A stretch of DNA of 64,000 bases, taken from Thermoplasmata archaeon. Lineage in GTDB: Archaea; Thermoplasmatota; Thermoplasmata; GCA-020350865. Both the position numbers and the translations under genes were made by a program. The first letter of the stretch is position 1; every line of letters begins with the position of its first letter. The notes under the pieces are model-generated. The model made no database searches and was not told the origin of the DNA. It was given only the letters and a program-made list of their open reading frames with translations. The stretch is taken from the NCBI GenBank assembly GCA_020348445.1, contig CP070751.1, positions 4,321,723-4,385,722 on the forward strand, written 5' to 3'. This document shows, in pieces, positions 37,387 through 58,708 of the stretch.

Positions 37387-40300
37387 ATGCCAACTGAAGA
37401 TAATAACACCCTTTCATGCCCTTTCTGTGGAAAAGAGATATCTTATGGCGATACCAAGTGCAGCAATTGCGGCCGAAAATTGATAAAAGAAAAAGAGAAC
37501 GGCACAAAAAGGGGCCTTGGCAGAGCCCTTTCTGAAAAATACTGGAAAAAGATCACAGAGTTGGAGAGGAGGAAGAAGAAGGAGGCCGAAAAACCACAAG
37601 ATAAGGAGATTATCCTGGGTGTATTCTCCCTCATACCAGACATAGGGCGGAGCCGGGCAGAGGCTTTTTGGGACGCGGGTTTCAGATCATTGGAGGATCT
37701 GAGGAAGGCGTCATTGGATGAAATTGCGGCTGTAAAAGGGATTGGTAGGGCATTGGCCGAGAAAATTCAAAGTAACTTATCAAGACCTGAAAAAAGAATC
37801 GAGAGAGGAGAGCTCCTCATATGCACCAATTGTGGTGCGCTTTTAAGCTCTTCTGCCATACGCTGTGGCCTATGCGGTGTAAAGGTTCAAGAGGAAGAGC
37901 TTGCAGAAGAGGAGATTATAGAAGAAGAAGGGATGGAAGAAGAGCCGGATTTATATCTTTGTCCCGAATGCGGGTCCTTCTTGGCACCTGGGGCTGTTGA
38001 GTGCGGCGAATGCGGAGCCGTCTTCGAAATGGAAGAAGGTGAGGAAGTCGAAGAAATCGAGCCCCCACCAAAGATGGTAAAAGAAAAGGAGGAAGTGGAG
38101 GAGCTCAGGGCACTGTTTCTCTGTCCCAATTGTGGAGCCTTCTTGGCCCCTGACAAAGAGGTATGCGATAAATGTGGTGTCAAGACAAGGGAAATCGAAG
38201 AAAAAATCGAGGAGGAAGGAGAAAGAGAGCGGGAGCTTCTTGAAGAAATGTTGATTGAGTTGGAACCTGAAATAGAGAAGGTTTCTGCAGAATATGGAGA
38301 GGATCTATCTGAACTGTTCATTTGTCCAGAGTGTGGATCATTCCTCACAACCGGGGCTACTGAATGCAGCTATTGCGGTGTTGCCTTTGAGGAAGAAGAA
38401 GAGGTTGAAGAGCTGGAAAAGGTAGAGGTCGCACTTGAGAGAATAGAAGCCGCTCTGGAAAAGGAGATTGAGGCTGAAGAAGTATCTGCAGAATATGGAG
38501 AGGATCTATCTGAACTGTTCATTTGTCCAGAATGCGGTTCTTTTTTAAATATAGGTGCAACTGAATGTAGCTTTTGTGGTGTGGTATTTGAGGAGGAGGT
38601 AGAAGAAGAGATAGCAGAGCCTGAAAAAGAAGTCAAGGTCGAAGAGGTAGCTGCAGAATATGGAGAGGATCTGTCTGAGCTGTTCATCTGTCCTGAGTGC
38701 GGCTCCTTTTTAACCACCGGCGCTGAGAAGTGTAGTTACTGCGGTGTGGTCTTTGAGGAGGAAGAGGAGGAGGTAAAAATTGAGGAAGAAGCTCCCTCTC
38801 TTTTGCCTAAAAAGTTACCTGATTTCTGGTATAAAAAGGAAGAGGAAGAGGTTTATTTATGTCCAAATTGCGGGTCCTTCCTTACCACAGGTGTTGAGGA
38901 ATGCCGCAGTTGCGGTGTGAAAATCGAACCTGGGATGGAGATTAATGCTTTAGCCGAGATTTCAGGGGAGCCAAAAAAGGTACCTGATTACTGGATTAAG
39001 GAAAAGGAGCCATCATCTCTATTTATTTGCCCTGAATGTGGTGCCTTCAACAAAGATGAATCCACCCATTGTAGTATCTGCGGTGTAGGCTTAAAAGAAG
39101 AGGTGGAGGAAGAATTAGAGGAAGAGGTTCCCCTTAAGGAGGTTCTAGGAGAAGAACCGATAGTAGAAGAAGAGCCATTGATAGAGGAAGAGCCACTGGT
39201 ATTAGAAGAAGAGATCAGAAGGAAGGAAATCGATTTGGAGGAGGAAATCGCGGAGGAAATCGAAGAGGAGATCAGGAGCTTAGAGGTATCTTTAGAGGAA
39301 GTAAAACCCTTGAAGGTTCCGGGTTTGATAAATGGGCTGTCAAACGGATTATCAAACGGTCTCTCAAACGGTCTCTCAAATGGCCTTTCAAATGGTCTTC
39401 GAATGAGAAGAAAGAGCCTCGCCGGAGTCACAAATGGTATTACCAATGGTGTAACAAACGGTCTCACAAATGGACTGCGTAGGCTCAGATTGGGTCTTGT
39501 CAATGGCCTTACAAATGGCAATGGAATAACAGACGGAGTAGGTCCCATAAAGGACGCTCTTAAAAGAGCTAGCGGCACTATCCGTGTGGTGGTCCTGGTG
39601 GGCATTGTTTTACTGCTTTTGGCTTCTCCATACCTCATTAATTTGTTGATTCCTTCACGTCATCCCATGGAGATCGATGGCGACTTCAGCGAGTGGGCAG
39701 ATATACCTGGTTATTCGGATTCATTATCAGACCTAACTCGAAATCAGGATGTCAACATCGTTGAGTACAAACTGACCATCAACAAATGGGGCGATATGGC
39801 GTTCTATCTAAAAGTGAACGGTACCATCCTAAATGGGATCTACGGTATGGACTCAGTCAATATTTTCATAGATGAGGACGGTAATTCTAGCACAGGCTAT
39901 AGGATATCCACCTTGGGAGCAGACAAGATGATCGGTGTGGTGGGATGGGACCACAATATATATGAGGGAGCTTACAGCCAATTCAATATGTCGCGCTCGC
40001 AATTGGACCTAAACGGATTCGATGTATTTTATAAAATACCTGTTGCCATTGGCAAAGATAAACTTGAGACTAAGATATGGCTTTCCACCCTGAGTATGGA
40101 ACTGAATAGGCCCGTGAGGATACTTTTCAGCGCAAGGGATACAGCGGGCAATGAAGACATATCAGATGTCATAATAAGCCAAATTTACGGTGCCCTTAAA
40201 ATAAGAGAGACGAGCACAGCCCCAGAGAAAATCCCAAAAGGTGCAAGCAGGGTGTCTATGTTGAAGCTTGATTTGAATGCAATGGGTGAGGATATTTCAA

Positions 40301-42384
40301 TAGCATCCATGAACCTTACCATAACAGGCAGTGCAACAGATGCAGATCTAAAGGGGATTTGGGTTTTCCATGATAGTAACCAAAATGGCATATTAGATGA
40401 GACAGTTGATAGAAAACTATCAAATTTGGGCATTGATATAAGCGAGGGCAAGGTAAATATTCCCTTTGAATTAACGATATCTAAAAATGAAGAAGAGACA
40501 TTATTTGTAGCACTGGATATATCTGAAGGAGCAACGGATGAGAAAACTGTTGGATTGCGGATTGCAGAGCCTGTTGATGTTGTCTTCGACCCAGGTGTTT
40601 TGACTCTCATGCCCATTGATTTAGCGAACAGTTACATAGGCAAGGTTGGGGAAAACATCACCATAGATGGTGCATTCGGTGATTGGGATAAGTCCCAAGC
40701 AACGAGCGATACTTCAGATGATGTGCGAAACGGCTACAACAGGGTCGAAAATGGAAACATTGACATAATGCACTACGATACAAGACACAATTTGGAGTTG
40801 CTCGCCTTTTATTTAGATGTTGATGGTACGATGCTTGGAGGCGTAACTGTACCCTGGAACGGGACACGACCCTCTGAGCCTATAAAGGGTGTGCTAAGAG
40901 ACAGTGACGGTGATGGTTATCCAGATCAGGAGGAACCCTCACAATTCAGATATGACTTCGACAACGATGCAGGATTACCTGATGATCCAAATAATCCCGT
41001 GGAGCCAGACACTGGACCAGATGGTGTTGACCATGACAGCGACAACGATGGTATCGAGGATTGGCCTTGGGGTGGAAATGATACTCTCCTTGAGCAGCCG
41101 CGAACAAAAAAGATGAAGTATATAGGAGAGCCTCGTCTTCCATCTAGGCTGCCTGTGGTCACAGGTGAAGATGTGGCTTATATTTTTATCGACGCTGATA
41201 ATGATGTATCAACTGGATATAATGTAAACGAATTAATTGGTGCAGATTTCATGCTCAATATTTCGGGGAAGGGCAACTTAATAACTTCAAAATATCTAAA
41301 CAGATTCAACTCTGCAAATACTAAGGTTTGGGTTTGGAGCATTGTGGGGAATTTGAGTGCAGCCATCGACTCAAACGAGTTGGAAGCTCAGATAGAATTT
41401 TCTGCCCTTGACATTTTGTTAAACGAACCCTTTAATGTCTGGTTTTTCACAACAGATTGGATGGACTCCTATGACCTGTCTGACTTTGGTCTTTCAGATA
41501 CAAGAGGGAGTAGGGGAACCAGGGCTGGAGGCGGATCAAAGGTTGTTTTGAACGAGATTTTTCCAGATGCAAATGGATGGATTGAATTGTACAATACCGG
41601 AAAAAAAGCGGAGGATATAAGTGGATTTACTATAATTTGGGATGGCAATTCTTATACAATTCCACAGGGAACCACAATCCCCTCTGGTGGTTTTCTTGCA
41701 TATGATGTTGGATCCATTTCCAGCTCAGGAACAGTCACCATGAATAATAACAAGGGCCAGCAGGTTGACTCCACAACATATGCCAGTGTACCTTCTGGGG
41801 AGGGTTGGGGAAGATATCCTGACGGAGCAGATAACTGGATATATACCACTCCTACCAAAGCTGCGGCAAATCAACCTGCAGTTCCTCCACCAACTGCTGA
41901 TGTTGTTATCAACGAGGTGTTTCCCGACGCAAACGGTTGGGTTGAGCTTTATAATAATGGTGATAAAAACACAAATATTGGTGGCTGGTACATCGTTTGG
42001 AGCGGGGGAACCTACACAATACCCCCAAATACCAAGATTCAAAAGGGCTCATTTAACACATTTGATGTGGGCAATATACCATCCACCGATACAGTTACAT
42101 TATATGATGTCAACGATGTACAGCAGGACTCTGAATCCTTTGCGAATGTGCTCTCAGGCTATGGATGGGGGAGGTGCCCAGATGGCACGTCCAGCTGGTG
42201 GCTAACAATCCCCACAAAAGACGCAGCAAACACGATCCCGGAATTTTCCGATGCAATTGCACCGATTCTGTTCATCTTTTTCATCTTTGGCCTGATAAAA
42301 AATCGAAGTAAGAAAAAAAGCAAAGAAATCGAAAAGGAAGGGTGTTTAAGGGAACTGGACAAGGTCCTTTGTGAAAGGTCCTAA
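37387..42384 (+). CDS. Giant trans-envelope protein A (1665 aa): 9 Cys4 zinc ribbons + HhH, NG repeats, TM, extracellular DOMON/CBM9-like and Asp-rich module, two lamin-tail domains, PEF-CTERM
   Basis: Nine CxxC-x10-CxxC units; HHH_5-like IPDIGRSRAEAFWDAGFRSLEDLRKASLDEIAAVKGIG; (L/I/V)(S/T)NG repeats; TM IRVVVLVGIVLLLLASPYLINLLI; two VxNExFPDANGWxELYN LTD-like domains; IPEFSDAIAPILFIFFIFGLIKNRSKKK. Confidence 0.85.
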   Translation: MPTEDNNTLSCPFCGKEISYGDTKCSNCGRKLIKEKENGTKRGLGRALSEKYWKKITELERRKKKEAEKPQDKEIILGVFSLIPDIGRSRAEAFWDAGFRSLEDLRKASLDEIAAVKGIGRALAEKIQSNLSRPEKRIERGELLICTNCGALLSSSAIRCGLCGVKVQEEELAEEEIIEEEGMEEEPDLYLCPECGSFLAPGAVECGECGAVFEMEEGEEVEEIEPPPKMVKEKEEVEELRALFLCPNCGAFLAPDKEVCDKCGVKTREIEEKIEEEGERERELLEEMLIELEPEIEKVSAEYGEDLSELFICPECGSFLTTGATECSYCGVAFEEEEEVEELEKVEVALERIEAALEKEIEAEEVSAEYGEDLSELFICPECGSFLNIGATECSFCGVVFEEEVEEEIAEPEKEVKVEEVAAEYGEDLSELFICPECGSFLTTGAEKCSYCGVVFEEEEEEVKIEEEAPSLLPKKLPDFWYKKEEEEVYLCPNCGSFLTTGVEECRSCGVKIEPGMEINALAEISGEPKKVPDYWIKEKEPSSLFICPECGAFNKDESTHCSICGVGLKEEVEEELEEEVPLKEVLGEEPIVEEEPLIEEEPLVLEEEIRRKEIDLEEEIAEEIEEEIRSLEVSLEEVKPLKVPGLINGLSNGLSNGLSNGLSNGLSNGLRMRRKSLAGVTNGITNGVTNGLTNGLRRLRLGLVNGLTNGNGITDGVGPIKDALKRASGTIRVVVLVGIVLLLLASPYLINLLIPSRHPMEIDGDFSEWADIPGYSDSLSDLTRNQDVNIVEYKLTINKWGDMAFYLKVNGTILNGIYGMDSVNIFIDEDGNSSTGYRISTLGADKMIGVVGWDHNIYEGAYSQFNMSRSQLDLNGFDVFYKIPVAIGKDKLETKIWLSTLSMELNRPVRILFSARDTAGNEDISDVIISQIYGALKIRETSTAPEKIPKGASRVSMLKLDLNAMGEDISIASMNLTITGSATDADLKGIWVFHDSNQNGILDETVDRKLSNLGIDISEGKVNIPFELTISKNEEETLFVALDISEGATDEKTVGLRIAEPVDVVFDPGVLTLMPIDLANSYIGKVGENITIDGAFGDWDKSQATSDTSDDVRNGYNRVENGNIDIMHYDTRHNLELLAFYLDVDGTMLGGVTVPWNGTRPSEPIKGVLRDSDGDGYPDQEEPSQFRYDFDNDAGLPDDPNNPVEPDTGPDGVDHDSDNDGIEDWPWGGNDTLLEQPRTKKMKYIGEPRLPSRLPVVTGEDVAYIFIDADNDVSTGYNVNELIGADFMLNISGKGNLITSKYLNRFNSANTKVWVWSIVGNLSAAIDSNELEAQIEFSALDILLNEPFNVWFFTTDWMDSYDLSDFGLSDTRGSRGTRAGGGSKVVLNEIFPDANGWIELYNTGKKAEDISGFTIIWDGNSYTIPQGTTIPSGGFLAYDVGSISSSGTVTMNNNKGQQVDSTTYASVPSGEGWGRYPDGADNWIYTTPTKAAANQPAVPPPTADVVINEVFPDANGWVELYNNGDKNTNIGGWYIVWSGGTYTIPPNTKIQKGSFNTFDVGNIPSTDTVTLYDVNDVQQDSESFANVLSGYGWGRCPDGTSSWWLTIPTKDAANTIPEFSDAIAPILFIFFIFGLIKNRSKKKSKEIEKEGCLRELDKVLCERS
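38284..38697 (+). repeat. Three near-identical copies of a zinc-ribbon module head (SAEYGEDLSELFICPECG)
   Basis: 47 nt identical at 38284-38330 and 38485-38531; third copy near 38650 with synonymous changes. Confidence 0.9.
39322..39540 (+). repeat. 12-bp / 4-aa [LIV][ST]NG repeat tract in protein A
   Basis: GLINGLSNGLSNGLSNGLSNGLSNGL...GVTNGITNGVTNGLTNGLRRLRLGLVNGLTNGNGITDG; codons vary synonymously between units. Confidence 0.95.
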
Positions 42385-42463: not shown

Positions 42464-43333
42464 ATGAAGAAGATCAAGACCGGAGTTTTTGGATTGAATC
42501 CCCTTTTAGACGGAGGGATAAACGAGAACTCCACCACAGCTGTTATTGGAAGCTCTGGTGCTGGAAAAACAACGTTCGCAATTCAATTCATCAGAAAGGG
42601 CCTGGAATCTGGACAGGAATGTATATTTGTGAGTTTAGATGAGAATAAGGAACAGATTATCAGAGAGGCGGTGGAAATGGGGTGGGAGGAGATCATGGAC
42701 TATTTAAAAGAAGAGACCCTGGTGTTCATCGATGCCTCTGGCAAGGATTTTTCAAATTTCATAAGGAAGGAGCTTCACGAATTTGTCGCCGATTGGAAGG
42801 GCGTTGGGGCGAGAATCGCAATCGATCCTTTGACACCCGTTATATGGGCCGTGGAAAATAACTATGAACAAAGGGAGCTTATTACGATGTTGCTTAAGCA
42901 GACAAGAAAGGTGGGCACGGTGCTCTGCACCCTGGAGGAACATGGAACAGAAAGCGATCTTTCCGGAAAGGAAACAATTATCCCAATGTATCTGGCAGAT
43001 TGTGTAATACACCTGCGCTATAAAGCCATGGAGGGCCCAAAAAACAGAATGCTGAAGATAGTTAAGTGTCGAAACAGCTGGCACAGTGAGGATTTCCATC
43101 AATACAGAATCATAAGCGGGTTGGGTTTGGTTGTGCAGCAGGGTGATTTTGAAAAGAAAACGAAAAAGGAGGCACCAGCAGAGCTAATGAAAATGCTTGA
43201 AAAAAACGCAACTTTACTGCCTGAGGGTGTATATACGAAAATGCACAAAACACTGAAAAGTCTTTCAGATTCTGAACTGGGTGATATCACCCATCCCGAA
43301 CTGATACGTTATATAGTCGATGAGTACAGCTGA
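42464..43333 (+). CDS. KaiC/RAD55-family (COG0467) single-domain ATPase
   Basis: IKTGVFGLNPLLDGG, Walker A GSSGAGKT, SLDE, Walker B IAIDP, IVKCRNSWH; C-terminal helical extension. Confidence 0.9.
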   Translation: MKKIKTGVFGLNPLLDGGINENSTTAVIGSSGAGKTTFAIQFIRKGLESGQECIFVSLDENKEQIIREAVEMGWEEIMDYLKEETLVFIDASGKDFSNFIRKELHEFVADWKGVGARIAIDPLTPVIWAVENNYEQRELITMLLKQTRKVGTVLCTLEEHGTESDLSGKETIIPMYLADCVIHLRYKAMEGPKNRMLKIVKCRNSWHSEDFHQYRIISGLGLVVQQGDFEKKTKKEAPAELMKMLEKNATLLPEGVYTKMHKTLKSLSDSELGDITHPELIRYIVDEYS

Positions 43334-44183: not shown

Positions 44184-44256
44184 TATATATAAGATACAAC
44201 CACTATATTTTCTAATATTAGTAGAATTTCTATTAAGATTCTACTTGGAGTAGAAT
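44184..44256 (+). promoter_or_regulatory. TATA box plus two 8-3-8 palindromic operator-like sites upstream of the ArsR-like gene
   Basis: TATATATA 44184-44191; TTTCTAAT-ATT-AGTAGAAT 44209-44227; perfect ATTCTACT-TGG-AGTAGAAT 44238-44256. Confidence 0.65.
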
Positions 44257-44269
44257 TTGAGGGATTATT

Positions 44270-44878
44270 ATGAGCGTAGAGCATTTTAAAAGTAGAGTGG
44301 ATGCTCTCTCTGGAGAGCACAGTTTAAAGATACTATTTTATCTCAGGGATAGTGATTGGTCCATTGCCTTGGATATTGCACGGGAACTTCGGCTCCATCC
44401 CACAACAGTTGCGAGATATCTTACAAAGATGCACAATGCCGGGATCATATCAAAAAGACCGAAGTGCGTGAAAACTGGAAAGACTTTTGAATACAGATTA
44501 AAATCGAAAAAAATCGATCTAACTTTGGATTTAAGTGAAGAAACTGATTATAAAAGCCCTTGTTCCATTGTGGATTTGATATCAAGAATCATTGATAGAT
44601 TAGAAAAGGTTGGTTGCCCCTTCAATCAAGACATTTTCAAAGATAAAAGAGAAAGGGAAACTTTTACCCTCATCATATCTAAAAAGGGGGACGAGATCTC
44701 CACTTTGAGCAAGAAGGACAAGGAATCTTTTACAAATGCTCTTGAGAGTCTCATCAAATTCTCTGAAAAATCTTATGGTAAATCTGTCACACAGGATATT
44801 GTTCTTTCAGCATGGCGTTCAATGGAGAAAACCGCGGGCGGATTTATGCCAGAATATATTCAGGAGGTGTTAAATTGA
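44270..44878 (+). CDS. ArsR-like wHTH regulator with a C-terminal helical domain
   Basis: ALSGEHSLKILFYL..IALDIARELRLHPTTVARYLTKMHNAGII..FEYRL; stop overlaps the TTG start of the next KaiC gene. Confidence 0.82.
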   Translation: MSVEHFKSRVDALSGEHSLKILFYLRDSDWSIALDIARELRLHPTTVARYLTKMHNAGIISKRPKCVKTGKTFEYRLKSKKIDLTLDLSEETDYKSPCSIVDLISRIIDRLEKVGCPFNQDIFKDKRERETFTLIISKKGDEISTLSKKDKESFTNALESLIKFSEKSYGKSVTQDIVLSAWRSMEKTAGGFMPEYIQEVLN

Positions 44879-45570
44879 AAGTATCATCTGGAATAGAGGG
44901 AGTGGATACCCTTTCTCATGGTGGATATCCTGAAGGTGGAGTGAATCTGATTTCTGGGGTAGCTGGTTCGGCTAAGACACTATTTGCCCTACATTTTCTG
45001 TGCAAAGGCTTGGAAGATAACGAGATGGGGCTTTTAATTACACTGGAAGAGGAGAAGGAAAGCATAGAGAGGGTTATGTCTCTTATGGATATCAATTCCT
45101 CCTCCAGAAAGATCGATATAATAGACCTCGGATTGATAAGAGCAGAGAAGGCCGAGGTTGGGGAGGGAATGGTAGGTTTTTCTGATCTCAAGGATTTCTT
45201 AAGCAGCTTCTTAGCCTCTCATCCCACTAAAAGGATAGTAATAGATTCCATATCTGCCGTGGGTATATATTACAAGGAAATAGAGAAACTCAGAGAAGAG
45301 CTTTTTTCCTTTGTGAGGTTTCTGAGGGGAAATGATGTAACAACAATTCTAACATCGGAGTCTTTAGAGGGAGGCAGTCTCACCAGATTTGGAGTTGAGC
45401 AGTTCCTTGCCGACTCTTTCATTGTTCTAGGTCTTGAAGAGGTCAAAGGCGAACTTAGGAGAACCATCACAATAAGAAAAATGAGGTTCACAAGCCACGA
45501 CACAGCCAAAAGACCGTTTCTAATCACAGAAAAGGGGATAGAGGTCTTTGTCAAAGAAAAGGTCCTATAA
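44875..45570 (+). CDS. KaiC/RAD55-family (COG0467) single-domain ATPase
   Basis: SSGIEGVDTLSHGG, Walker A variant GVAGSAKT, catalytic TLEE, IVIDS, RFGVEQFLADSFI, IRKMRFTSH. TTG start at 44875 after GGAGGTG. Confidence 0.9.
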   Translation: MKVSSGIEGVDTLSHGGYPEGGVNLISGVAGSAKTLFALHFLCKGLEDNEMGLLITLEEEKESIERVMSLMDINSSSRKIDIIDLGLIRAEKAEVGEGMVGFSDLKDFLSSFLASHPTKRIVIDSISAVGIYYKEIEKLREELFSFVRFLRGNDVTTILTSESLEGGSLTRFGVEQFLADSFIVLGLEEVKGELRRTITIRKMRFTSHDTAKRPFLITEKGIEVFVKEKVL

Positions 45571-48500
45571 TAAAAAAGTAAAAAGTGGGATTTTAGGTTT
45601 CGATCCTCTAATCGAAGGGGGATTCCCAAAAGGCTCATCCATACTCCTTCAGGGCCCCACTGGCTTGGAGAAAGAGCTATTTTATATGCAATTTATAAAG
45701 GAGGGACTTGAAAATGGAGAATCGACTGTAGTTCTTCTTTCTGTAAAATCCCCAGAGAATTTAAAGGATGAGCTGTTGGATTTGGGCTTAGATGTCGAGC
45801 TCCTCCTAGAACAAAAGAGACTCATTATCATCGACTGGTGCTCTTGGAAAACTGAAAATATAGTATACATTCAGGAGGAGGGATCAATTCTCAGGTGCGC
45901 GGCAGACATAATGAACGTGAGCATAGCCCTTGGTAAGGCCCTTTCCATGATTAAGGGTGAACGCATCAGGGCAGCAGGAGATATTCTTTCAGACGCCCTT
46001 AATTCGGAGACTCTAAGGACAGTATACGAGTTTGCTAAAGGGTGCAAGGTCAAGTTCGATGAGAAAGGCGTAACTGCGCTATTTACTCTAGAAAAGGAAA
46101 TACATGATCCAGAAACAATATCAAAACTTCAAACCCCTTTCGATGGCATCATAGATATAGAGCGGGAGAAAATTGAAAATAAAGTGGTAAGAAAGATAGG
46201 AATACTCGCGATGAAAAATTCTTCTATTCCATCTCATTACGAGGATCTTAATATTGGTAAAAACGAGGTATTTATTGGAGAACTTCCCAAAAGGAAGGAT
46301 AAGACCTCGAAAGAAAAAAGTAAATCCAAGAAATCAAAATCTTCCAAAGCTTCCAAAACCCATTCTGCCCCCAAAAAATCCAAATCATCAAAGAAGTCGG
46401 ATAAGTCAAAAAAATCCAAGTCATCTAAAGAGTCGAAACCATCTAAATCACCTGAGACTTCCAAAAGCCGTCCCCCCTCTAAAAAACCAAAATCGCTTAA
46501 AACATCAAAAAAGCCAAGGTCCTCAACAAAATCTAAATCGTCCAAATCCCCTAAAAAGCCCAAATCATCCAAAGCTCGTAAATCCTCCAAATCATCTGTA
46601 TCTTCTAAGAAAACTAAACAAACAAAATCACCCGAGCCTGATCTTCTTCCAGTTACCGAAGAATCACAAGATGCGGAGCTTGAAGAAAAGGAAGTGAAAG
46701 TAGAAGAGAAGGTAGAAGAAAAACCAAAACAATCCATTTATCTTTGTGTCGAGTGTGGAGCTTTTATAGGTAAACAGGGTGAGAAATGTAGCATTTGCGG
46801 TGCCGTATTTTTCGAAGAGGAAGAAACCGAAGATGAAGAAGATGAAGGGGAAAATATCCCTGAGATCGAGAGGGAGGAAATTGACAGTCATGACCTATAC
46901 CTATGTCCAGAATGCGGAGCTCTATTATCACCTGATGCTGAAATCTGTATCAATTGCGGATCAAGTTTGGAAGAGGAGGAATCAGAAGGGGAGGAACCAG
47001 AAGACGAGTCAACATCCGAGCCTGAGAATGTGCCAGACCTATTGGATAGTGAGCCTAAGACAGAGATTTTTCTATGTCCGGAATGTGGTGCTCTATTGGG
47101 TCCAGATGCTGAAATCTGTGTAAATTGCGGATCAAGTATAAAAGATGTGGAATTCCAAGAAGAGGATATTATATCAGAACTCGAGGATGTTCTGGATTTT
47201 GTAACTCATGATAAGGAAACAGAGATTTTTTTATGTCCTGAGTGCGGGGCCTTCATAAGTTCCATGGTAAATGAATGCTCAATTTGCGGTGTCGTATTTG
47301 AAGAAGAGGAAGGCATTGAGTCAGTCGAAGAAGAGACTATCTTGAAATCTGAAGAAGTACCAGATTTCTGGTATAGAAAAGAGCATGCAATGCCCTACAT
47401 ATGCCCTTGGTGTGGGGCTTTTATCAAAGCAGGGGAGACATGGTGTGATATATGCAATGCAGAAATTGTTTCAGGAAAGCAACATGTTACAGAACCATCA
47501 GAAGAAGAGGATTTTTCACCATTATGGATCCCATCAGAGAATCTATGCCCAAAATGCGGTGCATTCAATGCCAATGATGCCCAGGGTTGTTCAGTCTGCG
47601 GTAAACAAATAAAAGAAGAAATACGAACAGTTGAAGAGGAAATCACACAACAAGAAAGCACATATGATGCAAAAATCGAGGACGAAATCGAGAATTTAAT
47701 TGCCTTACTAGAGGAATTTGATACTGAAGAAGAAGAGAGTTTGACCAGTAGCCCAAAAATAGATATTAAATATGATAGAAAAGACGCAATAGGGATCACT
47801 AATGGACTTACAAATGGCTTAAAAGCACGTACAAGTAAAGTGAGAAAGTGTTTCATAAATGGCATTACAAACGGCATAAAAACGCCAAAAAGAGGAATGA
47901 CAAATGGTCTTACCAACGGTATGATAATGGAGCTTAAAGCCCTAAGAGATGGATTCACAAACGGTAAAGGGATATCAAATGGTCTGACCAACGGTCTAAC
48001 AAATGGTCTTACTAATGGATTGAGAAGGCTGAGAAGGGGAATTACAAACGGAATCACCAACGGAAACGGAATAACCAATGGAATTGGCCCCGTCAAAGAG
48101 ACCATGGTCAAAAAGGCAAAGATTAGTAAAATTCTAGTTACCATTGGCCTTGTGATGTTGCTCTTCATCTCGCCCTTTCTAATAAGTTCATTTGTTCCTT
48201 CCCATGAGCCTCTCCAAATCGATGGTAACTTCAGCGATTGGGATAATTTTATGAGGTATTCGGATTCCCTAACAGACCAAACAAAAAACCAAGATATCAA
48301 TATAGAGGAATTCAAGGTAACTCACAATAGATGGGGTGAAATTGCATTCTATCTCAAAGTCAGGGGCACATTGCTTTCGGGTCAATATGGATTGGACTCG
48401 GTTCATATATTCATAGATGAAGACGATAACACCGAAACAGGCTACCGTATAAGGACGATTGGAGCCGATAAACTGATCTTTATTACAGGATGGAATAACA

Positions 48501-50772: not shown

Positions 50773-53700
50773 ATGGAGTTAGGCTCCTTAAAAATCTTCT
50801 TGAGTATGCACGGAATCAGCCCACGGGCAGCGGAGATACTCTACAATGCTGGTTTTGATGATATTCAAAAGCTGAAGAGTGCCTCAATCCAAGAATTAAT
50901 AGAAATTTCAGGCATCGACACACAAACTGCCTTAAAAATCAGGAATGTGGTTCTTAAGACGGATTTTGACGAGAAAGAAGTAAAGGGCGAGATATTCATT
51001 TGTTCTAAATGCGGAGCCTTTGTGTCATCATCATCAAAAAAATGTGATGTTTGTGGAGCTTCAATAAAGGACTTTTTTGAAGAGGGAAAGCAAGAAGCGA
51101 AGGTAGAAGGGGAGATAAAAGGTGTAAAAGATCACACAAGGGATTTAGAAGATATCGATAATTACCTGAATATCCTGGCTGGGATATTAGAGTTAAAGCA
51201 CGGGGATAGAGCACTTACAATTAGAAAAATAGAAAAGGAATTGGACACCTTCATAGATGAACTTGAAGGGGATATACCACACGAGCTTTATTTATCTAAA
51301 TTAGATATAGAGCCCCTATTTTATTGTCCAGAATGCGGAGCATCGATTACCAAGGTGTCTGATAAATGCGAAATATGTGGATTACTTTTCGGGGAGCCAA
51401 TATTTGAACCTTTGGAATTTCCAAAGGATGATATTAGTATAAAGCAACTTTTTGAAAGGGATGTTAATAAGGCGAGCTTACTTGTGGGTATAAGCGTAGA
51501 GTTAAAGAAGGCACAGGACATACCGGAACTTTGGTACTCCAAGGGTGTAATTTTTGCAGATATGGAAGAGCATGAGCTGGCGATAAAAAGTTTTGATAGG
51601 GTCCTTGTTCTTGATAAGAATAACAGCAAGGCATGGAACGCTAAAGCCTCTTCCCTTGCTAAGCTTGGAAGGTATAATGAAGCGTCAGAATGTTTTGGAA
51701 GGGTGACAGGTCTTCTACTTCGGGCTTTCGAGACGAGGCAAAAAGATGAGGAGGAGTTGAAGATCCAGGAGGATGCTGTTTTATATGTCTGTGGTGAATG
51801 TGGTGCTTTTATCGGCGATTACGCACAAACGTGTCAAACATGCGGATCCAAGGTGATCGAGGATATCGAGAGCATCGTGTCCCAAATTCCATCGCATGAG
51901 ATAGAAGAGGAATTACCATCTGAAATTGAAGAGGAATTGGATGTCATAAGTGTGGATCAGGATATATCGACATTGGTGGATACCCAGCTAAGGGCTAAGG
52001 AACCAGCCTTGTTGATGAGCTGTCCCGAGTGTGGGGCCTTCATAGAAAAGGAGGAAAAGAAGTGTAATATATGCGGGTTGATTTTGGGGGTCCCCATCGA
52101 GGAATCACCAGAAGCACTTGAAGAATTTATTCTTGCCACGACACCCATTGGAGTGGAGATCGAGAAAACACGGCATCTGGCGAGTATCAATGCAGAATTG
52201 AAAAAGAAACCAAATGATCTGGAGCTTTGGTATTCAAAGGGTGTAATTCTAGCGGATATGGGTGAGCATGAACTCGCAATAAAATGTTTTGACAGAATTT
52301 TAACACTGGATGATAACCACAGCAAGGCATGGAACGCCAAAGCCTTTTCCCTGGCAAAACTCGGGCGGTTCAATGAGGCATCCATATGTCTTGCTAAGGT
52401 TGCTGAGCCCGTATTTGAAACATTTGACGAGATAGGTAGGTACGAGAAAGAATTATTGTTCGAGGTAAAGGAAAGATTTCAGACGTGTCTTACATGCGGG
52501 GTGCCTCTGAATTGGGATGATACAGTCTGTTACAACTGCGGAACCGCAGTTGCGGAGTTCAAAGAGGCTGTGGAGGAGGAAGCAAAGAAGGGAGTCTCAA
52601 GAGACTTCCGTAAGCGTTGGGAAAAAATATCTCAATTTGAGGAGCCCATAGATACTGATGTCCCTGTTGAGGAAACAAAAGAACCTGAGGAAATCGAGGA
52701 ATCATTTGAAGAACCGAAAGAGTTTGAGATGCCCTATGAGGAGCCTGAGGTTCCGGTTGAAGAATTTGAGGAAGAGATCGAGGCTCCATTTAAAGAACCT
52801 GAGGAGCTTGAATTACCCCATGAAGAACCCGAAGAATTAGAGATTCCATTTGAAGAGTTTGAGGCTCCAATAGAGGAACCTGAAGAAATAAAGGCCCCAT
52901 TCAAGGAACCTGAGGAGCTTGAATTACCTTATGAAGAACAAGAAGAAATAGAGGTTCCAGTTGAAGAATTTGAGGAAGAGGTCGAAGCTCCGATAGAGGA
53001 ACCTGAAGAAATAGAGGCCCCATTTGAAGAACTTGAAGAACTTGAATTACCCCATGAAGAACCTGAAGAGTTTGAAGTTCCCATTGAAGAGGCTAAAAAG
53101 GTTGAGGCCTCCTTTGAAGAACCTGAAGAGTTTAAAGTTCCCATTGAAGAGGCTGAAAAGGATGAGACTCCCTTTGAAGAACCTGAAGAGTTTGAGTTAC
53201 CAATGGAAGAACCTGATGAAGTTGAAGTTCATGAAGAAGAGCCTGTGGTATTTGAATTAGTACAAGAAGAACCAGTAGAGGTCGAAGCTCCTGTCGAAGA
53301 ACCAAAGGAGGTTGAATTACCAGTTGAAGAACCTAAAGAGGTTGAGGTTCCAGTTGAAGAATTTAAGGAAGAAATCGAAGCTCCGATAGAGGAACCGGAA
53401 GAAGTTGAGGCCCCTGTTGAAGAACCAAAAGAGATTGAAGTTCCAGTGGAAGAATTTGAGGAAGAATTCCTAATTAAAGAGCTCAACGAATTTGGGGCAT
53501 TACTTGAAGAACCAGAGGAAGTCGAGGCTCCTTTAGAGGAACCTGAGGAAGTTGAAGTTGCTTTCGAAGAACTTGAAGAGTTTGAACTTCCCAAAGAAGA
53601 ACCTGAGGAAATCGAAGTTCCATTTGAAGAACCAGAGGATATTGAGGCTCCTTTAGAGGAACTTGAGGAAGTCACAGTTCCATTAAAAGAACTAGAAGAC

Positions 53701-56700
53701 ATTGCGTTTCCTATTATAGAGCCTGAAGAAGTTGAAATTCCATTAGAAGAAATAGAAGATATTGAGGCTCCCTTAGAAGAGCTTGAGGAAGTTGAAGTTC
53801 CTGTAGAAGAACCAGAAGACATTGAGGCTCCTTTAGAGGAACCTGAGGCAGTTGAAGTTCCATTAGAAGAACTAGAAGATATTGAGGTTCGTATTGAAGA
53901 ACCAAAAGAAGTTGAAGTTCCTATAGAGGAACCAGAGGAAGTCAAGGCTCCTTTCGAAGAACTTGAAGAGTTTGAGCTTCCCAAAGAAGAACCTGAGGAA
54001 ATTGAAATTCCATTAGAAGAACTAGAAGATATTGGGGCTCCTTTAGAGGAACTAGAAGAAGTCGAGGCTCCTTTCGAAGAACTTGAAGAGTTTGAGCTTC
54101 CCAAGGAAGAACCTGAGGAAATTCCATTTGAGGAGCCCAAAGGGGTCGATACCTTATCCGAAGAGCTTGAGAAGAGGGGTGTTCACTCATGTCCAAATTG
54201 CGGATGGCCGTTCGAAGAGGGTGCCTTTGAATGCGATATCTGCGGTGCAGATGTTGAGATATTTAAAGAAGTACCATCTATAGAGGACAAAGGATTAATA
54301 AGCATAGGAGCTGAGCCCGAAACCGGGGCAAAAATATCAGGTCTTACTAATGGCCTGACCAATGGTACGAGAGCCCACAGAGGAGGGCTTGTCAATGGAA
54401 ATGGGATAACCAATGGATTTACCAACGGAATTACAAATGGTTTAACAAATGGTCTGAAAAAGGCCAGGTTGGGATTGACCAATGGAATCACAAACGGTCT
54501 TACAAATGGATTAACAAACGGTTTGACAAATGGATTAAGGGCTCTGAAGATGGGTATCACAAATGGTATCACAAACGGTAACGGAATCACAAACGGTCTT
54601 AGTGCGCAAACGGTAAAAACCACAACGAAAAAGAGCGCAAGTAGAATTGTTGTCGCATGGTTACTCATTGTGGCTTTGATATCATTTCCTTTTATTTTGA
54701 GCAATCTCAGTGAGGAATCTAAAATAGTGGAGATCGATGGTAATTTCAGAGAATGGCGTGATATCCCTGGCTATTCTGATTCATCGATGGACCAGATTTA
54801 CAATCAAGACATAAACATCGATGAGTACAAGCTGAAACTCAACAATTTAGGGGAACTCGCATTCTATCTAAGGGTGAACGGGACCATGTTAAACGGTGCT
54901 TACGGTATGGACTCAGTTAATATTTTCATAGACGAGGACGATAATTTTGATACTGGTTATAAGATATCTACATTGGGGGCCGACAAGATGATAGCTGTCT
55001 GGGGATGGGACAACATCATATATGATGGAGGTTACAGCGAGTTCAACATGTCGCACTCGCAATTGGACCTAAATGGTTTCGATATATTCTATGAGATACC
55101 AACTGCCATTGATAAGGATAAACTTGAGACGAAGTTATGGCTTTCTGTTTTAAATGTGGAATTGAATCGGCCCGTGAAGGTGCTTTTCAATGCCAGAGAT
55201 ACAGCGGGTAACGAGGATATATCGGATGTGATAATCAGTCAAATAGATGGCGCGCTTCTCATCAACGAAATAAGTATCGCGCCACTGGAAATCCCAAAAG
55301 GTGCGAACAGGTTGCCAATGTTAAAATTGGAATTGAGTGCAAATGGTGAAGATATATTGTTGAAATCCATGAACCTTACCATAACAGGCACCGTAACAAG
55401 TAATGATTTAACGGGAATTAGCATTTATCTTGACAGTAACGAAAACGGTATCTTGGATGGGACAGGAGATGAAGAAATTGCGAGGATAGACAATGGAATT
55501 GACGAAAGCAAGGTCAATGTCCCAGTTTCTTTGTCCATAATAGAGGACAAGGAAGAAACACTCTTTGTGACCATAGATGTATCCTACGAAGTACAAGATA
55601 TAAAAACCATAGGAATACGAATTGCAGAGCCTAGTGATGTCATTTTTGAGCCCGGTGTTATAACACTAATACCTGTGTATGTTACGAGCAGCTACATTGG
55701 TGATGTGGGTGATAACATAACCATCGATGGGGCATTTGCCGATTGGAAAAACCATCCCTCAAGAAGCGATGCTCACCACGATGTTAGAAATCAGGGTAAT
55801 CTAATAGAAAATCTGAACGTTGATATAGCAAACTACAATGTACAAAATGACTTTCATGCTTTATCCTTCTATCTTGATGTTGGGGGTACTATGCTTGGCG
55901 GAGTAACTGTACCCTGGAATGCAACACGTCCTTCTGAACCGATAAGAGGTGGACCAGTTGATAGTGATGGTGATGGAATACCTGATGTGGAGGAAGCCTC
56001 GGAGTTCAGACATGATTTCGACAATGACGCAGGATCCCCTGATGAACTAGATAATCCGGTGAGGCCGAATACCGGGCCAGATGGCTACGATCACGACAGT
56101 GATAACGATGGCCAGGAAGATTGGCCATGGGGTAATGATACGATCCTAAAGCAACCTAAAACAGGGAGGAAGCGATATATAGGCGAACCCCGTCCACCTC
56201 CCAAACTGCCAGTGGTCACGGGTGAAGATGTGGCTTATATTTTCATAGATGCAGATAACGATAAATCCACAGGTTATTATGTTAATGAAATATTTGGTGC
56301 AGATTTCATGCTCAATATTTCGGGGAAAGGTAACCTCATAACATCAAAATACATAAACAGATTCAATTCTACAAATATTAGAAGTTGGAAATGGAACATT
56401 ATAGGGAATTTGAGCGCTGCTATAGATTCACATGCTTTAGAGGCAAAGGCCGACTTCGATGTCCTTGATATTTTACCAAACGAAACCTTTAGTATCTGGT
56501 TTTTCACCACTGATTGGCGGGACTCATATGATTTATCTGATTACAGCCTTTCTGATACCAGAGACATTAGGGGAACCAGGGCCGGAAAGGGAAATCCCAT
56601 AATAAATGAAATTTATCCCGATACAAATGGATGGGTGGAACTGTACAATCCTACAAACAAACAATTACGTCTTACAGGATGGAGTATAACATTTAGCGGT

Positions 56701-57069
56701 GGCACCTTTAATATTCCCGCAGGCACAACGATCCAACCTGGAGGGTATCTAGTATTCTACATTGGAAACGTTCCATCAACTGATACAGTGAGGCTATACA
56801 ATGCGAAGGGTCAAAGAAAGGATGAAACATCTTTTGCCAGCATACCTTCCGGCTTTGGATGGGGTAGAAATCCAAATAAACAACAGGATTGGTATATAAC
56901 CTACCCCACACCTGGTGATATAAATGTCATACCTGAGTTCAGTGATATTCTTCTCCCTATTTTTATCATGATAATCTTCATCGTGGTAAGAATGTTGAAA
57001 AATGACGAAAAAATATTTAAAAGGATAAACCATGCAAAACTCCGATATGATAGAAACCGGTCCAGATAG
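50773..57069 (+). CDS. Giant trans-envelope protein C (2098 aa): HhH, 6 zinc ribbons, two TPR pairs, ~500-aa acidic decapeptide repeat, NG repeats, TM, shared extracellular module, lamin-tail domain, PEF-CTERM
   Basis: GISPRAAEILYNAGFDDIQKLKSASIQELIEISGID (HHH_5-like); twice LWYSKGVI.ADM.EHELAIK.FDR.L.LD.N.SKAWNAKA.SLAKLGR.NEAS; TM IVVAWLLIVALISFPFILSNL; IPEFSDILLPIFIMIIFIVVRMLK. Confidence 0.85.
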   Translation: MELGSLKIFLSMHGISPRAAEILYNAGFDDIQKLKSASIQELIEISGIDTQTALKIRNVVLKTDFDEKEVKGEIFICSKCGAFVSSSSKKCDVCGASIKDFFEEGKQEAKVEGEIKGVKDHTRDLEDIDNYLNILAGILELKHGDRALTIRKIEKELDTFIDELEGDIPHELYLSKLDIEPLFYCPECGASITKVSDKCEICGLLFGEPIFEPLEFPKDDISIKQLFERDVNKASLLVGISVELKKAQDIPELWYSKGVIFADMEEHELAIKSFDRVLVLDKNNSKAWNAKASSLAKLGRYNEASECFGRVTGLLLRAFETRQKDEEELKIQEDAVLYVCGECGAFIGDYAQTCQTCGSKVIEDIESIVSQIPSHEIEEELPSEIEEELDVISVDQDISTLVDTQLRAKEPALLMSCPECGAFIEKEEKKCNICGLILGVPIEESPEALEEFILATTPIGVEIEKTRHLASINAELKKKPNDLELWYSKGVILADMGEHELAIKCFDRILTLDDNHSKAWNAKAFSLAKLGRFNEASICLAKVAEPVFETFDEIGRYEKELLFEVKERFQTCLTCGVPLNWDDTVCYNCGTAVAEFKEAVEEEAKKGVSRDFRKRWEKISQFEEPIDTDVPVEETKEPEEIEESFEEPKEFEMPYEEPEVPVEEFEEEIEAPFKEPEELELPHEEPEELEIPFEEFEAPIEEPEEIKAPFKEPEELELPYEEQEEIEVPVEEFEEEVEAPIEEPEEIEAPFEELEELELPHEEPEEFEVPIEEAKKVEASFEEPEEFKVPIEEAEKDETPFEEPEEFELPMEEPDEVEVHEEEPVVFELVQEEPVEVEAPVEEPKEVELPVEEPKEVEVPVEEFKEEIEAPIEEPEEVEAPVEEPKEIEVPVEEFEEEFLIKELNEFGALLEEPEEVEAPLEEPEEVEVAFEELEEFELPKEEPEEIEVPFEEPEDIEAPLEELEEVTVPLKELEDIAFPIIEPEEVEIPLEEIEDIEAPLEELEEVEVPVEEPEDIEAPLEEPEAVEVPLEELEDIEVRIEEPKEVEVPIEEPEEVKAPFEELEEFELPKEEPEEIEIPLEELEDIGAPLEELEEVEAPFEELEEFELPKEEPEEIPFEEPKGVDTLSEELEKRGVHSCPNCGWPFEEGAFECDICGADVEIFKEVPSIEDKGLISIGAEPETGAKISGLTNGLTNGTRAHRGGLVNGNGITNGFTNGITNGLTNGLKKARLGLTNGITNGLTNGLTNGLTNGLRALKMGITNGITNGNGITNGLSAQTVKTTTKKSASRIVVAWLLIVALISFPFILSNLSEESKIVEIDGNFREWRDIPGYSDSSMDQIYNQDINIDEYKLKLNNLGELAFYLRVNGTMLNGAYGMDSVNIFIDEDDNFDTGYKISTLGADKMIAVWGWDNIIYDGGYSEFNMSHSQLDLNGFDIFYEIPTAIDKDKLETKLWLSVLNVELNRPVKVLFNARDTAGNEDISDVIISQIDGALLINEISIAPLEIPKGANRLPMLKLELSANGEDILLKSMNLTITGTVTSNDLTGISIYLDSNENGILDGTGDEEIARIDNGIDESKVNVPVSLSIIEDKEETLFVTIDVSYEVQDIKTIGIRIAEPSDVIFEPGVITLIPVYVTSSYIGDVGDNITIDGAFADWKNHPSRSDAHHDVRNQGNLIENLNVDIANYNVQNDFHALSFYLDVGGTMLGGVTVPWNATRPSEPIRGGPVDSDGDGIPDVEEASEFRHDFDNDAGSPDELDNPVRPNTGPDGYDHDSDNDGQEDWPWGNDTILKQPKTGRKRYIGEPRPPPKLPVVTGEDVAYIFIDADNDKSTGYYVNEIFGADFMLNISGKGNLITSKYINRFNSTNIRSWKWNIIGNLSAAIDSHALEAKADFDVLDILPNETFSIWFFTTDWRDSYDLSDYSLSDTRDIRGTRAGKGNPIINEIYPDTNGWVELYNPTNKQLRLTGWSITFSGGTFNIPAGTTIQPGGYLVFYIGNVPSTDTVRLYNAKGQRKDETSFASIPSGFGWGRNPNKQQDWYITYPTPGDINVIPEFSDILLPIFIMIIFIVVRMLKNDEKIFKRINHAKLRYDRNRSR
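52660..54140 (+). repeat. Degenerate 30-bp / 10-aa acidic tandem repeat EE(P/L)EE(I/V/F)E(A/V/L/I)P(F/L/I/V)
   Basis: Roughly 45-50 units by eye; includes near-exact higher-order duplications (about 63 nt at 53941 and 54061 differ at 2 positions). Confidence 0.92.
54340..54600 (+). repeat. [LIVF]TNG repeat tract in protein C
   Basis: GLTNGLTNGT..GLVNGNGITNGFTNGITNGLTNGL..GLTNGITNGLTNGLTNGLTNGLRALKMGITNGITNGNGITNGL. Confidence 0.95.
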
Positions 57070-58708
57070 AACCGTATCTGCAAGCGATGTGGAGAAGTAC
57101 GGTTACTGCCCATTAAGTTGGTGGCTTTCAGAACAAAATGAGAGTGAGAAGGCTGAGAACCTGAAAAGAGGTATTCATAACCACGTTCAAATTGGTAAAG
57201 ATGTGAAAAACATCAAAGTCAAAGAGAAAAGGAGCGAGGAATCTGAGCGAAGCGTAATCTGGTTCTCCTTAATCGCTATTATTATCGGCATCAATGGTGT
57301 AGCAATTGTCTACACCATCTACTCGCCTTCCCAACAAGGTGAAACGATAATGATTTTACTATCTATAATTGCTGCGATTTGGGTATTTGTGGCTGCATTT
57401 TTCTTTTATTGGGGTACGAAAATGGAAAGAGAAACAAAGCGCACTACAATGGCTATCTCTAGTCAAAGAGCCATCTCAACGAAATATAAACCTGATAGCA
57501 GCACTGATTCGGAAATAGTGATAAAAAAAAGGGTAAAAGAAGCCAAATGGAGTACCCTTTTATTTTTTATGGTTAGTGGTATTTTGGCTTTGAATGCATT
57601 ATTTATTTTATTTAGTATAGGTGAAACCAATGTTGAGTTTATAAGCAGTATATTTCTTTTCTTATCCCTGATATGGCTTTTTGGCAGCTCCTTTTTCTAT
57701 TATAATTCATTGAAAAGAGAAATTGTATCAAAAGAAAAGAAGCAAGATGAAAAAGCGATTGTAAAACCCTCATTTTCAGATTCTGAGATATCAATAGTAT
57801 TATTTGCTATTGTGGCCACTGTTTTAGCATCAAATAGCCTTGCTATATATCAAAGCCCACATACGAATATCGGCATGATAATTCTAATAATGGCTGTGTT
57901 GTGGCTGTACGGGGGATTTATTTTCTTATATAGGGCAATAAGAGCAGATGTGAAGCTAAAGTTGCTGATCAATAGACTTTTTAGGCCCGTGGATAGTATA
58001 AGAGGGAAAATAGCCACCCGAGTCAAACTCAGTCGTGAAATAGAGGTAGAGAAATTAAATTACGAGCAAATAGTAATATGGTTTGCAGCAATATCAATGG
58101 TACTAGCAATAAATGCCATTTTAATGAACTTCACAAGGAGCCTTGAAGAGGAGATATATGGTACTTTAATAGCCCACATTTTTGAGGTCGTTGCTTTACT
58201 TTGGTTAATTGGTGCATTTTTCTTCTTATATAGGGTCATGCTTCATTCTTTAACTGCATCGAAATTGAGAACAGAACACGGTATTTCTGAGGGTAAGATA
58301 GATTATGTGGATGCCCTGGATGGGCAATCAGAAATGCTAAGATCTGAGAAATACGGACTTCGGGGAAGGCCAGATTATATCCTAGATAAAAAAGGAGAAC
58401 TCATACCTGTTGAGGTAAAGACAGGCCGCATACCGCGAGGTCCTCTTTTTTCCCATATAATACAATTGGCTGCCTATTGTTTGCTTTTGGAAGAAAAAAA
58501 TAACCGCACTCCTCCGTACGGCATTATCAAATATGGCGACACTCAGCATAAAATAGAATACACAAAAGAACTGAGGGATATTCTTATTAATAAACTTGAT
58601 GAGATGAAAAAAATCATGGTAACTGGGGAAGCTCATAGAAATCATAGACGGGAAAATAAATGTAGGGGCTGCTCCAGAAGAGAAATATGTCCCGAAAGAT
58701 TGGCCTAA
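57047..58708 (+). CDS. Solo Cas4-family (RecB-like PD-(D/E)XK, 4Fe-4S) nuclease with an 8-TM insertion
   Basis: N-terminal ASDVEKYGYCPLSWW (Cys1) and RGIHNH; eight hydrophobic segments; then RGRPDY, PVEVKTG, IQLAAY and CRGCSRREIC (C-x2-C-x5-C). Start overlaps the end of protein C (57032 also possible). Confidence 0.85.
   Translation: MIETGPDRTVSASDVEKYGYCPLSWWLSEQNESEKAENLKRGIHNHVQIGKDVKNIKVKEKRSEESERSVIWFSLIAIIIGINGVAIVYTIYSPSQQGETIMILLSIIAAIWVFVAAFFFYWGTKMERETKRTTMAISSQRAISTKYKPDSSTDSEIVIKKRVKEAKWSTLLFFMVSGILALNALFILFSIGETNVEFISSIFLFLSLIWLFGSSFFYYNSLKREIVSKEKKQDEKAIVKPSFSDSEISIVLFAIVATVLASNSLAIYQSPHTNIGMIILIMAVLWLYGGFIFLYRAIRADVKLKLLINRLFRPVDSIRGKIATRVKLSREIEVEKLNYEQIVIWFAAISMVLAINAILMNFTRSLEEEIYGTLIAHIFEVVALLWLIGAFFFLYRVMLHSLTASKLRTEHGISEGKIDYVDALDGQSEMLRSEKYGLRGRPDYILDKKGELIPVEVKTGRIPRGPLFSHIIQLAAYCLLLEEKNNRTPPYGIIKYGDTQHKIEYTKELRDILINKLDEMKKIMVTGEAHRNHRRENKCRGCSRREICPERLA

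Follow-up and report, generated by a model that had tools for sequence, protein, structure and literature searches.

Three giant membrane-protein paralogues and two recurrent KaiC cassettes at one locus of an uncultured Thermoplasmata archaeon: a possible route from cell surface to transcription

Do eight neighbouring genes that are read in one direction and partly overlap make one machine, or are several units lying side by side? The question is raised by positions 37387-58708 of a 64,000 nt stretch of DNA from an uncultured Thermoplasmata archaeon (GCA_020348445.1, contig CP070751.1, positions 4,321,723 to 4,385,722, forward strand), which is called the window below. An earlier note on this DNA had taken the eight genes, three of them encoding giant proteins, as one trans-envelope system with KaiC-like ATPases, winged helix-turn-helix (wHTH) regulators and a Cas4 nuclease. 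All eight co-oriented open reading frames (ORFs) were confirmed at the coordinates it had given, but they resolve into separate pieces: giant A, an adjacent paralogue with no module of its own; an interrupted unit of the ATPase K1, the regulator H1 and giant C; an inserted unit of the regulator H2, the ATPase K2 and giant B; and an unrelated Cas4. Judging from sequence comparison, we favour on balance the reading that the region holds three giant paralogues together with the two regulatory cassettes of their family, and that these would pass signals from the surface to transcription through KaiC. The features of the locus are as follows.

37387..42384, plus strand: giant A, 1665 aa, with a helix-hairpin-helix (HhH) motif, 9 zinc ribbons, x-T-N-G repeats, a transmembrane (TM) helix, a beta-sandwich ectodomain, 2 lamin tail domains (LTD) and a tail of IPEF, TM helix and basic residues
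39325-39519 (x-T-N-G repeats) and 39586-39642 (TM helix), plus strand: sub-features of giant A from the motif and hydropathy scan
42464..43333, plus strand: K1, a single-domain KaiC-like ATPase of clade I (~290 aa), matching PF06745 at 135 bits
43361..44071, plus strand: H1, a regulator with two winged-helix domains that is conserved as the partner of clade I KaiC
44210..44258, no strand: operator-like cluster of three AGTAGAAT boxes, preceded by an A/T-rich TATA-like stretch and followed by the H2 start codon
44270..44878, plus strand: H2, a single wHTH protein (ArsR/MarR-like), first gene of the type II cassette
44812..45570, plus strand: K2, a KaiC-like ATPase of clade II (191 bits), with a probable true start at TTG 44875 giving 231 aa
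45548..50512, plus strand: giant B, 1654 aa, with a pseudo-KaiC head (aa 1-255), a K/S-rich linker, 6 zinc ribbons, a TM helix, an ectodomain, an LTD and an IPEF tail
47795-48064, plus strand: x-T-N-G repeats of giant B from the motif scan
50773..57069, plus strand: giant C, 2098 aa, with HhH, TPR, 6 zinc ribbons, an acidic repeat, x-T-N-G repeats, a TM helix, an ectodomain, an LTD and an IPEF tail
52851-54116, plus strand: ~42 tandem copies of a 30-nt unit in giant C, encoding a 10-aa Glu/Pro acidic repeat in the cytoplasmic part
57032..58708, plus strand: Cas4, 558 aa, a solo Cas4 with 8 TM helices inserted after the first Fe-S Cys

The three giants belong together. Domain calls were made with Pfam and NCBIfam hidden Markov models (HMMs) plus a motif and hydropathy scan. 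Each giant contains CxxC-x(n)-CxxC ribbons (9 in A, 6 in B and 6 in C by motif scan), then 13-15 x-[TS]-N-G tetrapeptides just ahead of one internal TM helix, which is located at aa 734 in A, 862 in B and 1292 in C, then an ectodomain and one or more LTD domains. The ectodomains are 54-64% identical across ~750 aa, and the heads differ, B having a KaiC-like head in addition. The common layout described in the earlier note is therefore retained for ribbons, NG repeats, TM helix, ectodomain and LTD; the PEF-CTERM tail that it named is present as a motif, with HMM scores below the cut-off. We infer a single-pass topology with the N terminus inside, because there is no N-terminal signal peptide, basic residues stand before the TM helix and after the C-terminal helix, and the Cys4 ribbons lie on the N-terminal side.

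A, B and C are paralogues within a large family that is specific to Thermoplasmatota. In its core, x-T-N-G repeats precede one TM helix and an ectodomain of beta-sandwiches; a PEF-type tail usually follows, and the cytoplasmic head is variable. In this genome NG repeats stand ahead of a TM helix in 18 ORFs, 17 of which have the ectodomain, with the shared start I-D-G-x-F-x-D-W. Two other tandem triplets are located at ~870-893 kb and 1075-1104 kb. With a profile of the first 400 ectodomain residues, at least 379 relatives were found in the species genomes of GTDB, and when the phylum was sampled evenly, 33 of 301 Thermoplasmatota genomes (24 of 138 genera) had the family. We made a census of 77 loci from other Thermoplasmata metagenome-assembled genomes (MAGs); all 77 listed loci came from MAGs named Thermoplasmata, 'Methanomassiliicoccales' or 'Methanobacteriota', and in them 53 family members were assessable, having a complete 5' end and at least 2 kb upstream. 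At least five NG repeats were found in 49 of the 53 assessable members, and family-wide the juxtamembrane signature reads G-L-T-N-G-N-G-I-T-N-G, then ~12 residues with K/R, then the TM helix. Among 69 heads, 41 contained zinc ribbons, 32 TPR and 21 HhH. Very long members of 3,400-4,400 aa occur. In public annotation these proteins are named hypothetical, 'ATPase domain-containing', 'lamin tail domain-containing' or 'TPR repeat', and full-text literature searches found no paper describing the family.

The whole genome is a single contig of 5.16 Mb with 133 ORFs of at least 1,500 aa, the longest of ~6,300 aa, a very large complement of giants by archaeal standards. In one further paralogue (3423522-3430190, 2,222 aa) the family core is joined by a wHTH listed among its precomputed domains (PF13412) and, on the outside, by an S8 peptidase and FG-GAP repeats; it could be a membrane-tethered regulator or protease variant.

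The structure of the start of the ectodomain was modelled with a pLDDT of 73. The predicted part is composed of a jelly-roll/DOMON-like sandwich, an Ig-like domain and the start of a second I-D-G-x-F-x-D-W domain. Its fold search gave only generic beta-sandwich and adhesin matches and no functional assignment: adhesins, dopamine beta-hydroxylase, DOMON, glucodextranase-C-like and carbohydrate-binding-type domains and Thermoplasmatota hypotheticals, at TM-scores of 0.13-0.45. AF2 runs on 37 aligned juxtamembrane regions gave no reliable structure of the NG repeats, which appeared as low-confidence helices (pLDDT 49-78) beside a confident TM helix.

K1 and K2 are both KaiC-like ATPases (PF06745/COG0467), scoring over the cut-off with the catalytic motifs present. 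K1 has an intact Walker A (GSSGAGKT) and a conserved C-terminal extension; the Walker A of K2, GVAGSAKT, is a Gly-to-Ala variant common to clade II, and TLEE is kept. Neither is a circadian KaiC, since against TIGR02655 (double CI-CII form, more than 546 bits) K1 scored 73 and K2 119.7 bits, and both are single-domain. The N-terminal KaiC-like domain of giant B (85.5 bits) no longer has the lysine of Walker A, which reads GPTGLEKE, and other residues replace the catalytic LEE glutamates; it is predicted to be a catalytically dead KaiC.

A quick maximum-likelihood tree was built from 48 KaiC domains. Clade I (~290 aa, 25 rows, approximate likelihood ratio test (aLRT) 99) contained K1 and nearly all KaiCs that precede a wHTH gene and a giant. 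Clade II (238-252 aa, 6 rows, aLRT 99) contained K2; all six members lie directly upstream of a giant, and in all six cases that giant has a KaiC-like head. A third clade was formed by the KaiC-like heads fused to giants, giant B among them. Giant-linked KaiCs form dedicated clades in this tree. In the alignment clade I keeps G-x-S-G-A-G-K-T, and clade II has G-x-x-G-S-A-K-[ST] with T-L-E-E. The six fused heads that align clearly no longer have the Walker A GK[ST]; the two most divergent heads, those of loci L088 and L096, match KaiC weakly and do not align reliably over the catalytic region. PF06745 was detected in 59 of the best 120 database clusters of the ectodomain family.

The census connects these ATPases with the giants. 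Within the 77 loci we found KaiC homologues in 30, wHTH homologues in 26 and Cas4 in one. Directly upstream of the giant and co-oriented with it, a KaiC-wHTH pair was found in 16 of the 53 assessable members and KaiC alone in another 4, a total of 20, and the KaiC-linked loci came from at least 17 different MAGs. The earlier note had proposed to look for recurrent co-occurrence across genomes: it holds for the giants with KaiC and wHTH, and fails for Cas4, the one locus belonging to the same genus. The recurring arrangements are of two types, found across at least 17 unrelated MAGs. Type I is composed of a KaiC of ~290 aa, a double wHTH and a giant, here K1-H1...C; type II is composed of a wHTH, a KaiC of ~240 aa and a giant with a pseudo-KaiC head, here H2-K2-B. 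The type I arrangement is repeated in this genome at 1145-1158 kb (KaiC 299 aa, wHTH 253 aa, giant 3,667 aa), and a KaiC-giant arrangement at 603-610 kb (KaiC 249 aa, giant 2,053 aa). Zinc-ribbon heads were present in 19 of 20 KaiC-linked members versus 16 of 33 non-linked ones (Fisher p=7e-4, a value from related genomes that overstates their independence).

Another region of this genome, 135080-146152, contains a clade I KaiC and an H1-type wHTH after six tandem paralogues, each with one N-terminal zinc ribbon, and before a clostripain-family (C11) peptidase. The K/H pair therefore accompanies small zinc-ribbon proteins too.

How the two cassettes came to lie in one row can be read from the spacing and from the genus. 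A is separated from K1 by 79 nt and K1 from H1 by 27 nt; 198 nt follow, then H2, K2 and B overlap, and after 260 nt C and Cas4 overlap. The gaps of 198 nt and 260 nt fit three units, A-K1-H1, H2/K2/B and C/Cas4. The overlaps reported in the earlier note are real at H2/K2, K2/B and C/Cas4, but the length given for the first one needs correction. K2 probably starts at TTG 44875 rather than at ATG 44812, because GGAGGTG lies upstream, TTGA overlaps the H2 stop and homologues begin at the aligned position; the overlap with H2 would then be 4 nt (TTGA), not 67 nt.

In three relatives of the genus H1 is directly followed by a C-like head. The order on the same-genus chromosome CP070739.1 is sucC-sucD-ABCE1-A-K1-H1 and then directly the C-like head; a second genus member has A-K1-H1-C-like, and a third has C-like-Cas4. 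Since H1 stands directly before the C-like gene in the genus, K1-H1 is taken as the type I module of C, and giant C is likely the original partner of K1-H1. H2-K2-B has all the parts of a type II cassette, and only in this genome is it found as an insertion separating H1 from C. The C-like gene of CP070739.1 exists in two pieces ~600 kb apart, the head beside A-K1-H1 (locus L039, 14544-17489) and the part with NG repeats, TM helix and ectodomain beside Cas4 (locus L023, 16495-19626). Both breaks fall at runs of N, and the split may be a rearrangement or an artefact of assembly or masking. An inversion mediated by an insertion sequence was considered for it and rejected: the two sites carry ORFs of 602 and 603 aa that have no relation to each other, and N runs stand at both breaks.

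Full-length H1-type regulators (E<=1e-30) were found in 17 of 32 other family-positive genomes and in 0 of 268 family-negative ones, and the bare double-wHTH core is widespread. Homologues of H2 lie upstream of the K2-type KaiC in loci L088 and L096. The AGTAGAAT boxes just upstream of H2 comprise two direct copies and one inverted copy within 37 nt, out of four copies in the window; the cluster is a candidate operator of the wHTH regulator. A complex of K1 and H1 was predicted with a median score of 0.57 versus 0.27 for the best control, with contacts agreeing by at least 64% between runs and a partner pLDDT of at least 81. The score mark was reached by 58 of 80 solved complexes and by 2 of 110 mismatched pairs, and passes at or below 0.60 are often wrong unless the pairing is likely beforehand. 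Because the prior from conserved adjacency is high, we take the prediction as modest support only for a K1-H1 contact.

The C-terminal end of the giants suggests a second attachment. A, B and C share a tripartite tail of IPEFS, a TM helix and a K/R-rich end, and [IL]PE[FY] was found in 13 of the 18 NG-repeat ORFs of this genome. The PEF-CTERM model TIGR03024 (cut-off 23 bits) gave 16.9 bits for B (E 0.0055), below the cut-off, and no match for A and C at E<=0.01, so that the tail may be called PEF-like by its motif only. The genome encodes ArtA and a divergent ArtC-like archaeosortase. The latter (2831653-2832879) matched ArtC best, at 53.8 bits (cut-off 100), and the general exo/archaeosortase signature at 43.9 versus 23. 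Among the sampled genomes, its orthologues (E<=1e-25) were present in 23 of the 32 with the family and in none of the 268 that lack it. This co-distribution supports a dedicated sortase, and the PEF tail is probably processed by the ArtC-like enzyme.

Cas4 tells another story. It belongs to Cas4 (TIGR00372/PF01930), with a TIGR00372 score of 86.6 bits (cut-off 65), the RecB motifs D, EVK and QxxxY, C26 and three C-terminal Cys; eight TM helices are inserted between the first Fe-S Cys and the nuclease core. TM-inserted Cas4 was matched in 36 of 41 related genomes and 24 of 28 genera of the class. The usual form has ~335 aa and one TM hairpin; the window Cas4 has four hairpins, and eight helices occur only in the genus and in a single relative at order level. 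In twelve class- or order-level loci of TM-Cas4, one per genome, neither a giant of the family nor a KaiC stood alongside, and a giant directly upstream of Cas4 was seen within the genus only. Six of the twelve had among their neighbours homologues of one or both of the small genes that follow Cas4 in the window:

58705..59483, minus strand: two small genes, for a 119-aa 2-TM protein and a 140-aa lipoprotein-like protein, recurrent neighbours of TM-Cas4 in other genera

No Cas1 was matched in the 5.16-Mb genome (35.3 kb of it N) or in the window, and Cas4 is not accompanied by a cas1/cas2 adaptation module. PADLOC-DB v2 contained no model matching A, B or K2; C gave a marginal TPR-level match only, K1 a weak mad8 match (8e-9), and H1 and H2 generic wHTH matches only. 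Cas4 is thus a solo membrane-inserted Cas4, a neighbour of the cassette and not a component of it. It resembles the solo-Cas4 nucleases of Hudaiberdiev et al. 2017 (PMC5704561) in its score above the cut-off, its RecB motifs and four Cys, and its place away from CRISPR-cas genes; it differs in that TM-Cas4 has two to eight TM helices after the first Cys. Transmembrane forms are not mentioned in that paper, and our full-text literature searches found no description of a TM-inserted Cas4.

Further along the window, downstream of ribosomal-protein genes, a 429-aa ORF with an HTH-like C-terminal end (61636-62925, minus strand) and a 176-aa ORF (63440-63970, minus strand) were found.

We propose the following chain. 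The ectodomain, made up of adhesin-like sandwiches, acidic Asp-rich motifs and LTD, would bind or sense something at the surface. The head would recruit a KaiC-like ATPase ring, through the zinc-ribbon array in type I or by co-assembly with its own pseudo-KaiC in type II. The ATPase may then control the paired wHTH regulator, as GvpD controls GvpE, and thereby transcription, probably of the cassette itself. True KaiC forms hexamers, with stacked CI and CII rings; a membrane-anchored dead subunit together with a live one would resemble this stack.

Several observations weigh against such signalling. The compared genomes are related, so that the co-occurrence counts overstate independence, and the KaiC tree is a quick version with long branches. 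About 60% of the family members have no adjacent KaiC, which makes the link facultative. Two pairs of the K1/H1 type have no giant: one at 142.7 kb, whose neighbours are small zinc-ribbon genes and the gene of a C11 peptidase, and one at 3.48 Mb. The ectodomain has no known ligand or enzymatic domain, and the predicted K1-H1 contact lends weak support. One could also read KaiC and wHTH as a switch pair that acts on transcription of the surface-protein gene downstream, for example for surface variation among the ~18 paralogues, with no contact to the giant. This would agree with the place of K-H upstream of the giant and co-oriented with it, with the operator-like cluster ahead of H2 and with the K/H pairs beside other genes. 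But KaiC-like domains are fused to giants in those 59 of the best 120 clusters, the gene after each clade II KaiC encodes a giant with a KaiC-like head, and KaiC linkage correlates with zinc-ribbon heads. From these three points we argue for a link at the protein level, and consider pure transcriptional switching unlikely.

It is improbable, in our judgement, that the KaiC-like ATPases are helpers in assembly, quality control or export, which hold or cluster the heads during ectodomain translocation and leave to wHTH only a feedback role. Most members, including those of 3,400-4,400 aa, have no adjacent KaiC, clade I KaiC is conserved with a dedicated DNA-binding partner, and co-translational insertion of a signal anchor is known to need no extra ATPase. 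The translational coupling of K2 and B is tight, as a helper would have it, the giants rely on an internal signal anchor in place of an N-terminal signal peptide, and pseudo-KaiC heads could form rings clustering six giants, if they behave as KaiC hexamers do. The nucleic-acid machine suggested in the earlier note, by which giants, KaiCs and Cas4 would serve DNA uptake or processing, antiviral surveillance or nucleoid tethering across the envelope, we hold to be very improbable. HhH motifs are present in A, C and 21 of 69 heads, the nuclease motifs and four Cys of Cas4 are intact, and the C/Cas4 overlap is conserved within the genus; these HhH motifs are the one basis for the cytoplasmic nucleic-acid handling of that note. 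Against it, Cas4 stands beside a family member in one of 77 loci, outside this genome in the same genus only, and TM-Cas4, present in 24 of 28 genera of the class, has unrelated neighbourhoods in which the two small membrane-protein genes recur. The cassette contains no pilus, translocase or helicase genes. No known defence family in PADLOC matched the giants or K2, and Cas1 was not found in the genome; readings as DNA uptake or defence find little support.

Archaeal KaiC-like ATPases were proposed as signal-transduction hubs (Makarova, Galperin & Koonin, mBio 2017, as cited in PMC6393860). Its modules likewise place single-domain COG0467 ATPases near wHTH and membrane proteins, with fusion to varied input and output domains common, whereas here we have one defined family of giant single-pass proteins (NG repeats, PEF tail), two dedicated KaiC clades and a dead KaiC fused to the receptor. 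In haloarchaeal gas-vesicle clusters, the P-loop ATPase GvpD binds the activator GvpE and, depending on the Walker motif, reduces how much of it is present (PMC4390858). There too, the gene of a P-loop ATPase of the KaiC/GvpD/RAD55 group adjoins a transcription factor gene; however, GvpE is a leucine-zipper-like activator and not a double wHTH, and there is no membrane receptor, so that K1 and GvpD are compared as a functional analogy only.

The PEF-CTERM/archaeosortase C sorting system (TIGR03024, TIGR03762) was described by Haft et al. 2012 (as cited in PMC5244752). The giants share with it the conserved C-terminal P-E-F/Y motif, hydrophobic helix and basic tail, and the co-occurrence of an ArtC-like archaeosortase; they differ in that both HMMs stay below their cut-offs, and in having an internal signal anchor behind a cytoplasmic head of 700-1300 aa in place of an N-terminal signal peptide. 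With the internal anchor and the PEF tail, the mature giant would be anchored at either end. Adhesins of the Gram-positive MSCRAMM type (SdrG, ClfB, Bbp) also join tandem beta-sandwich or Ig-like extracellular modules with C-terminal sortase-type anchoring, but the TM-scores are 0.13-0.25 at ~10% identity, and a signalling head in the cytoplasm is absent from MSCRAMMs. No paper accessible to our searches describes the receptor family, either type of cassette or the PEF topology with its two anchors, the KaiC-hub proposal being the closest published idea. Four results are new for the window: its eight genes fall into separate cassettes, a type II cassette has been inserted, every clade II KaiC seen here is paired with a KaiC-like head, and the evidence sets Cas4 apart from the cassette.

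Separating the conserved cassette from its accidental neighbour Cas4 prevents a wrong annotation as a 'DNA-handling machine', and the topology is unusual for archaeosortase substrates. Archaeal signal transduction is poorly understood, and KaiC-like hubs have been proposed with few defined inputs. The family offers a testable chain from input through hub to output: a surface receptor whose head is modular, a KaiC from a dedicated clade or one that is dead and fused, and a dedicated regulator. This chain recurs in many sediment and soil Thermoplasmata, with up to ~20 receptors per genome. We might speculate further, as a tentative view only, that it is a not yet described form of transmembrane signalling in Thermoplasmata, in which single-pass giant receptors held at both ends dock KaiC rings through zinc ribbons or a dead KaiC and the ring gates a dedicated double-wHTH factor. 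If true, Thermoplasmata would have an archaeal equivalent of two-component or anti-sigma signalling that relies on RecA-fold ATPases.

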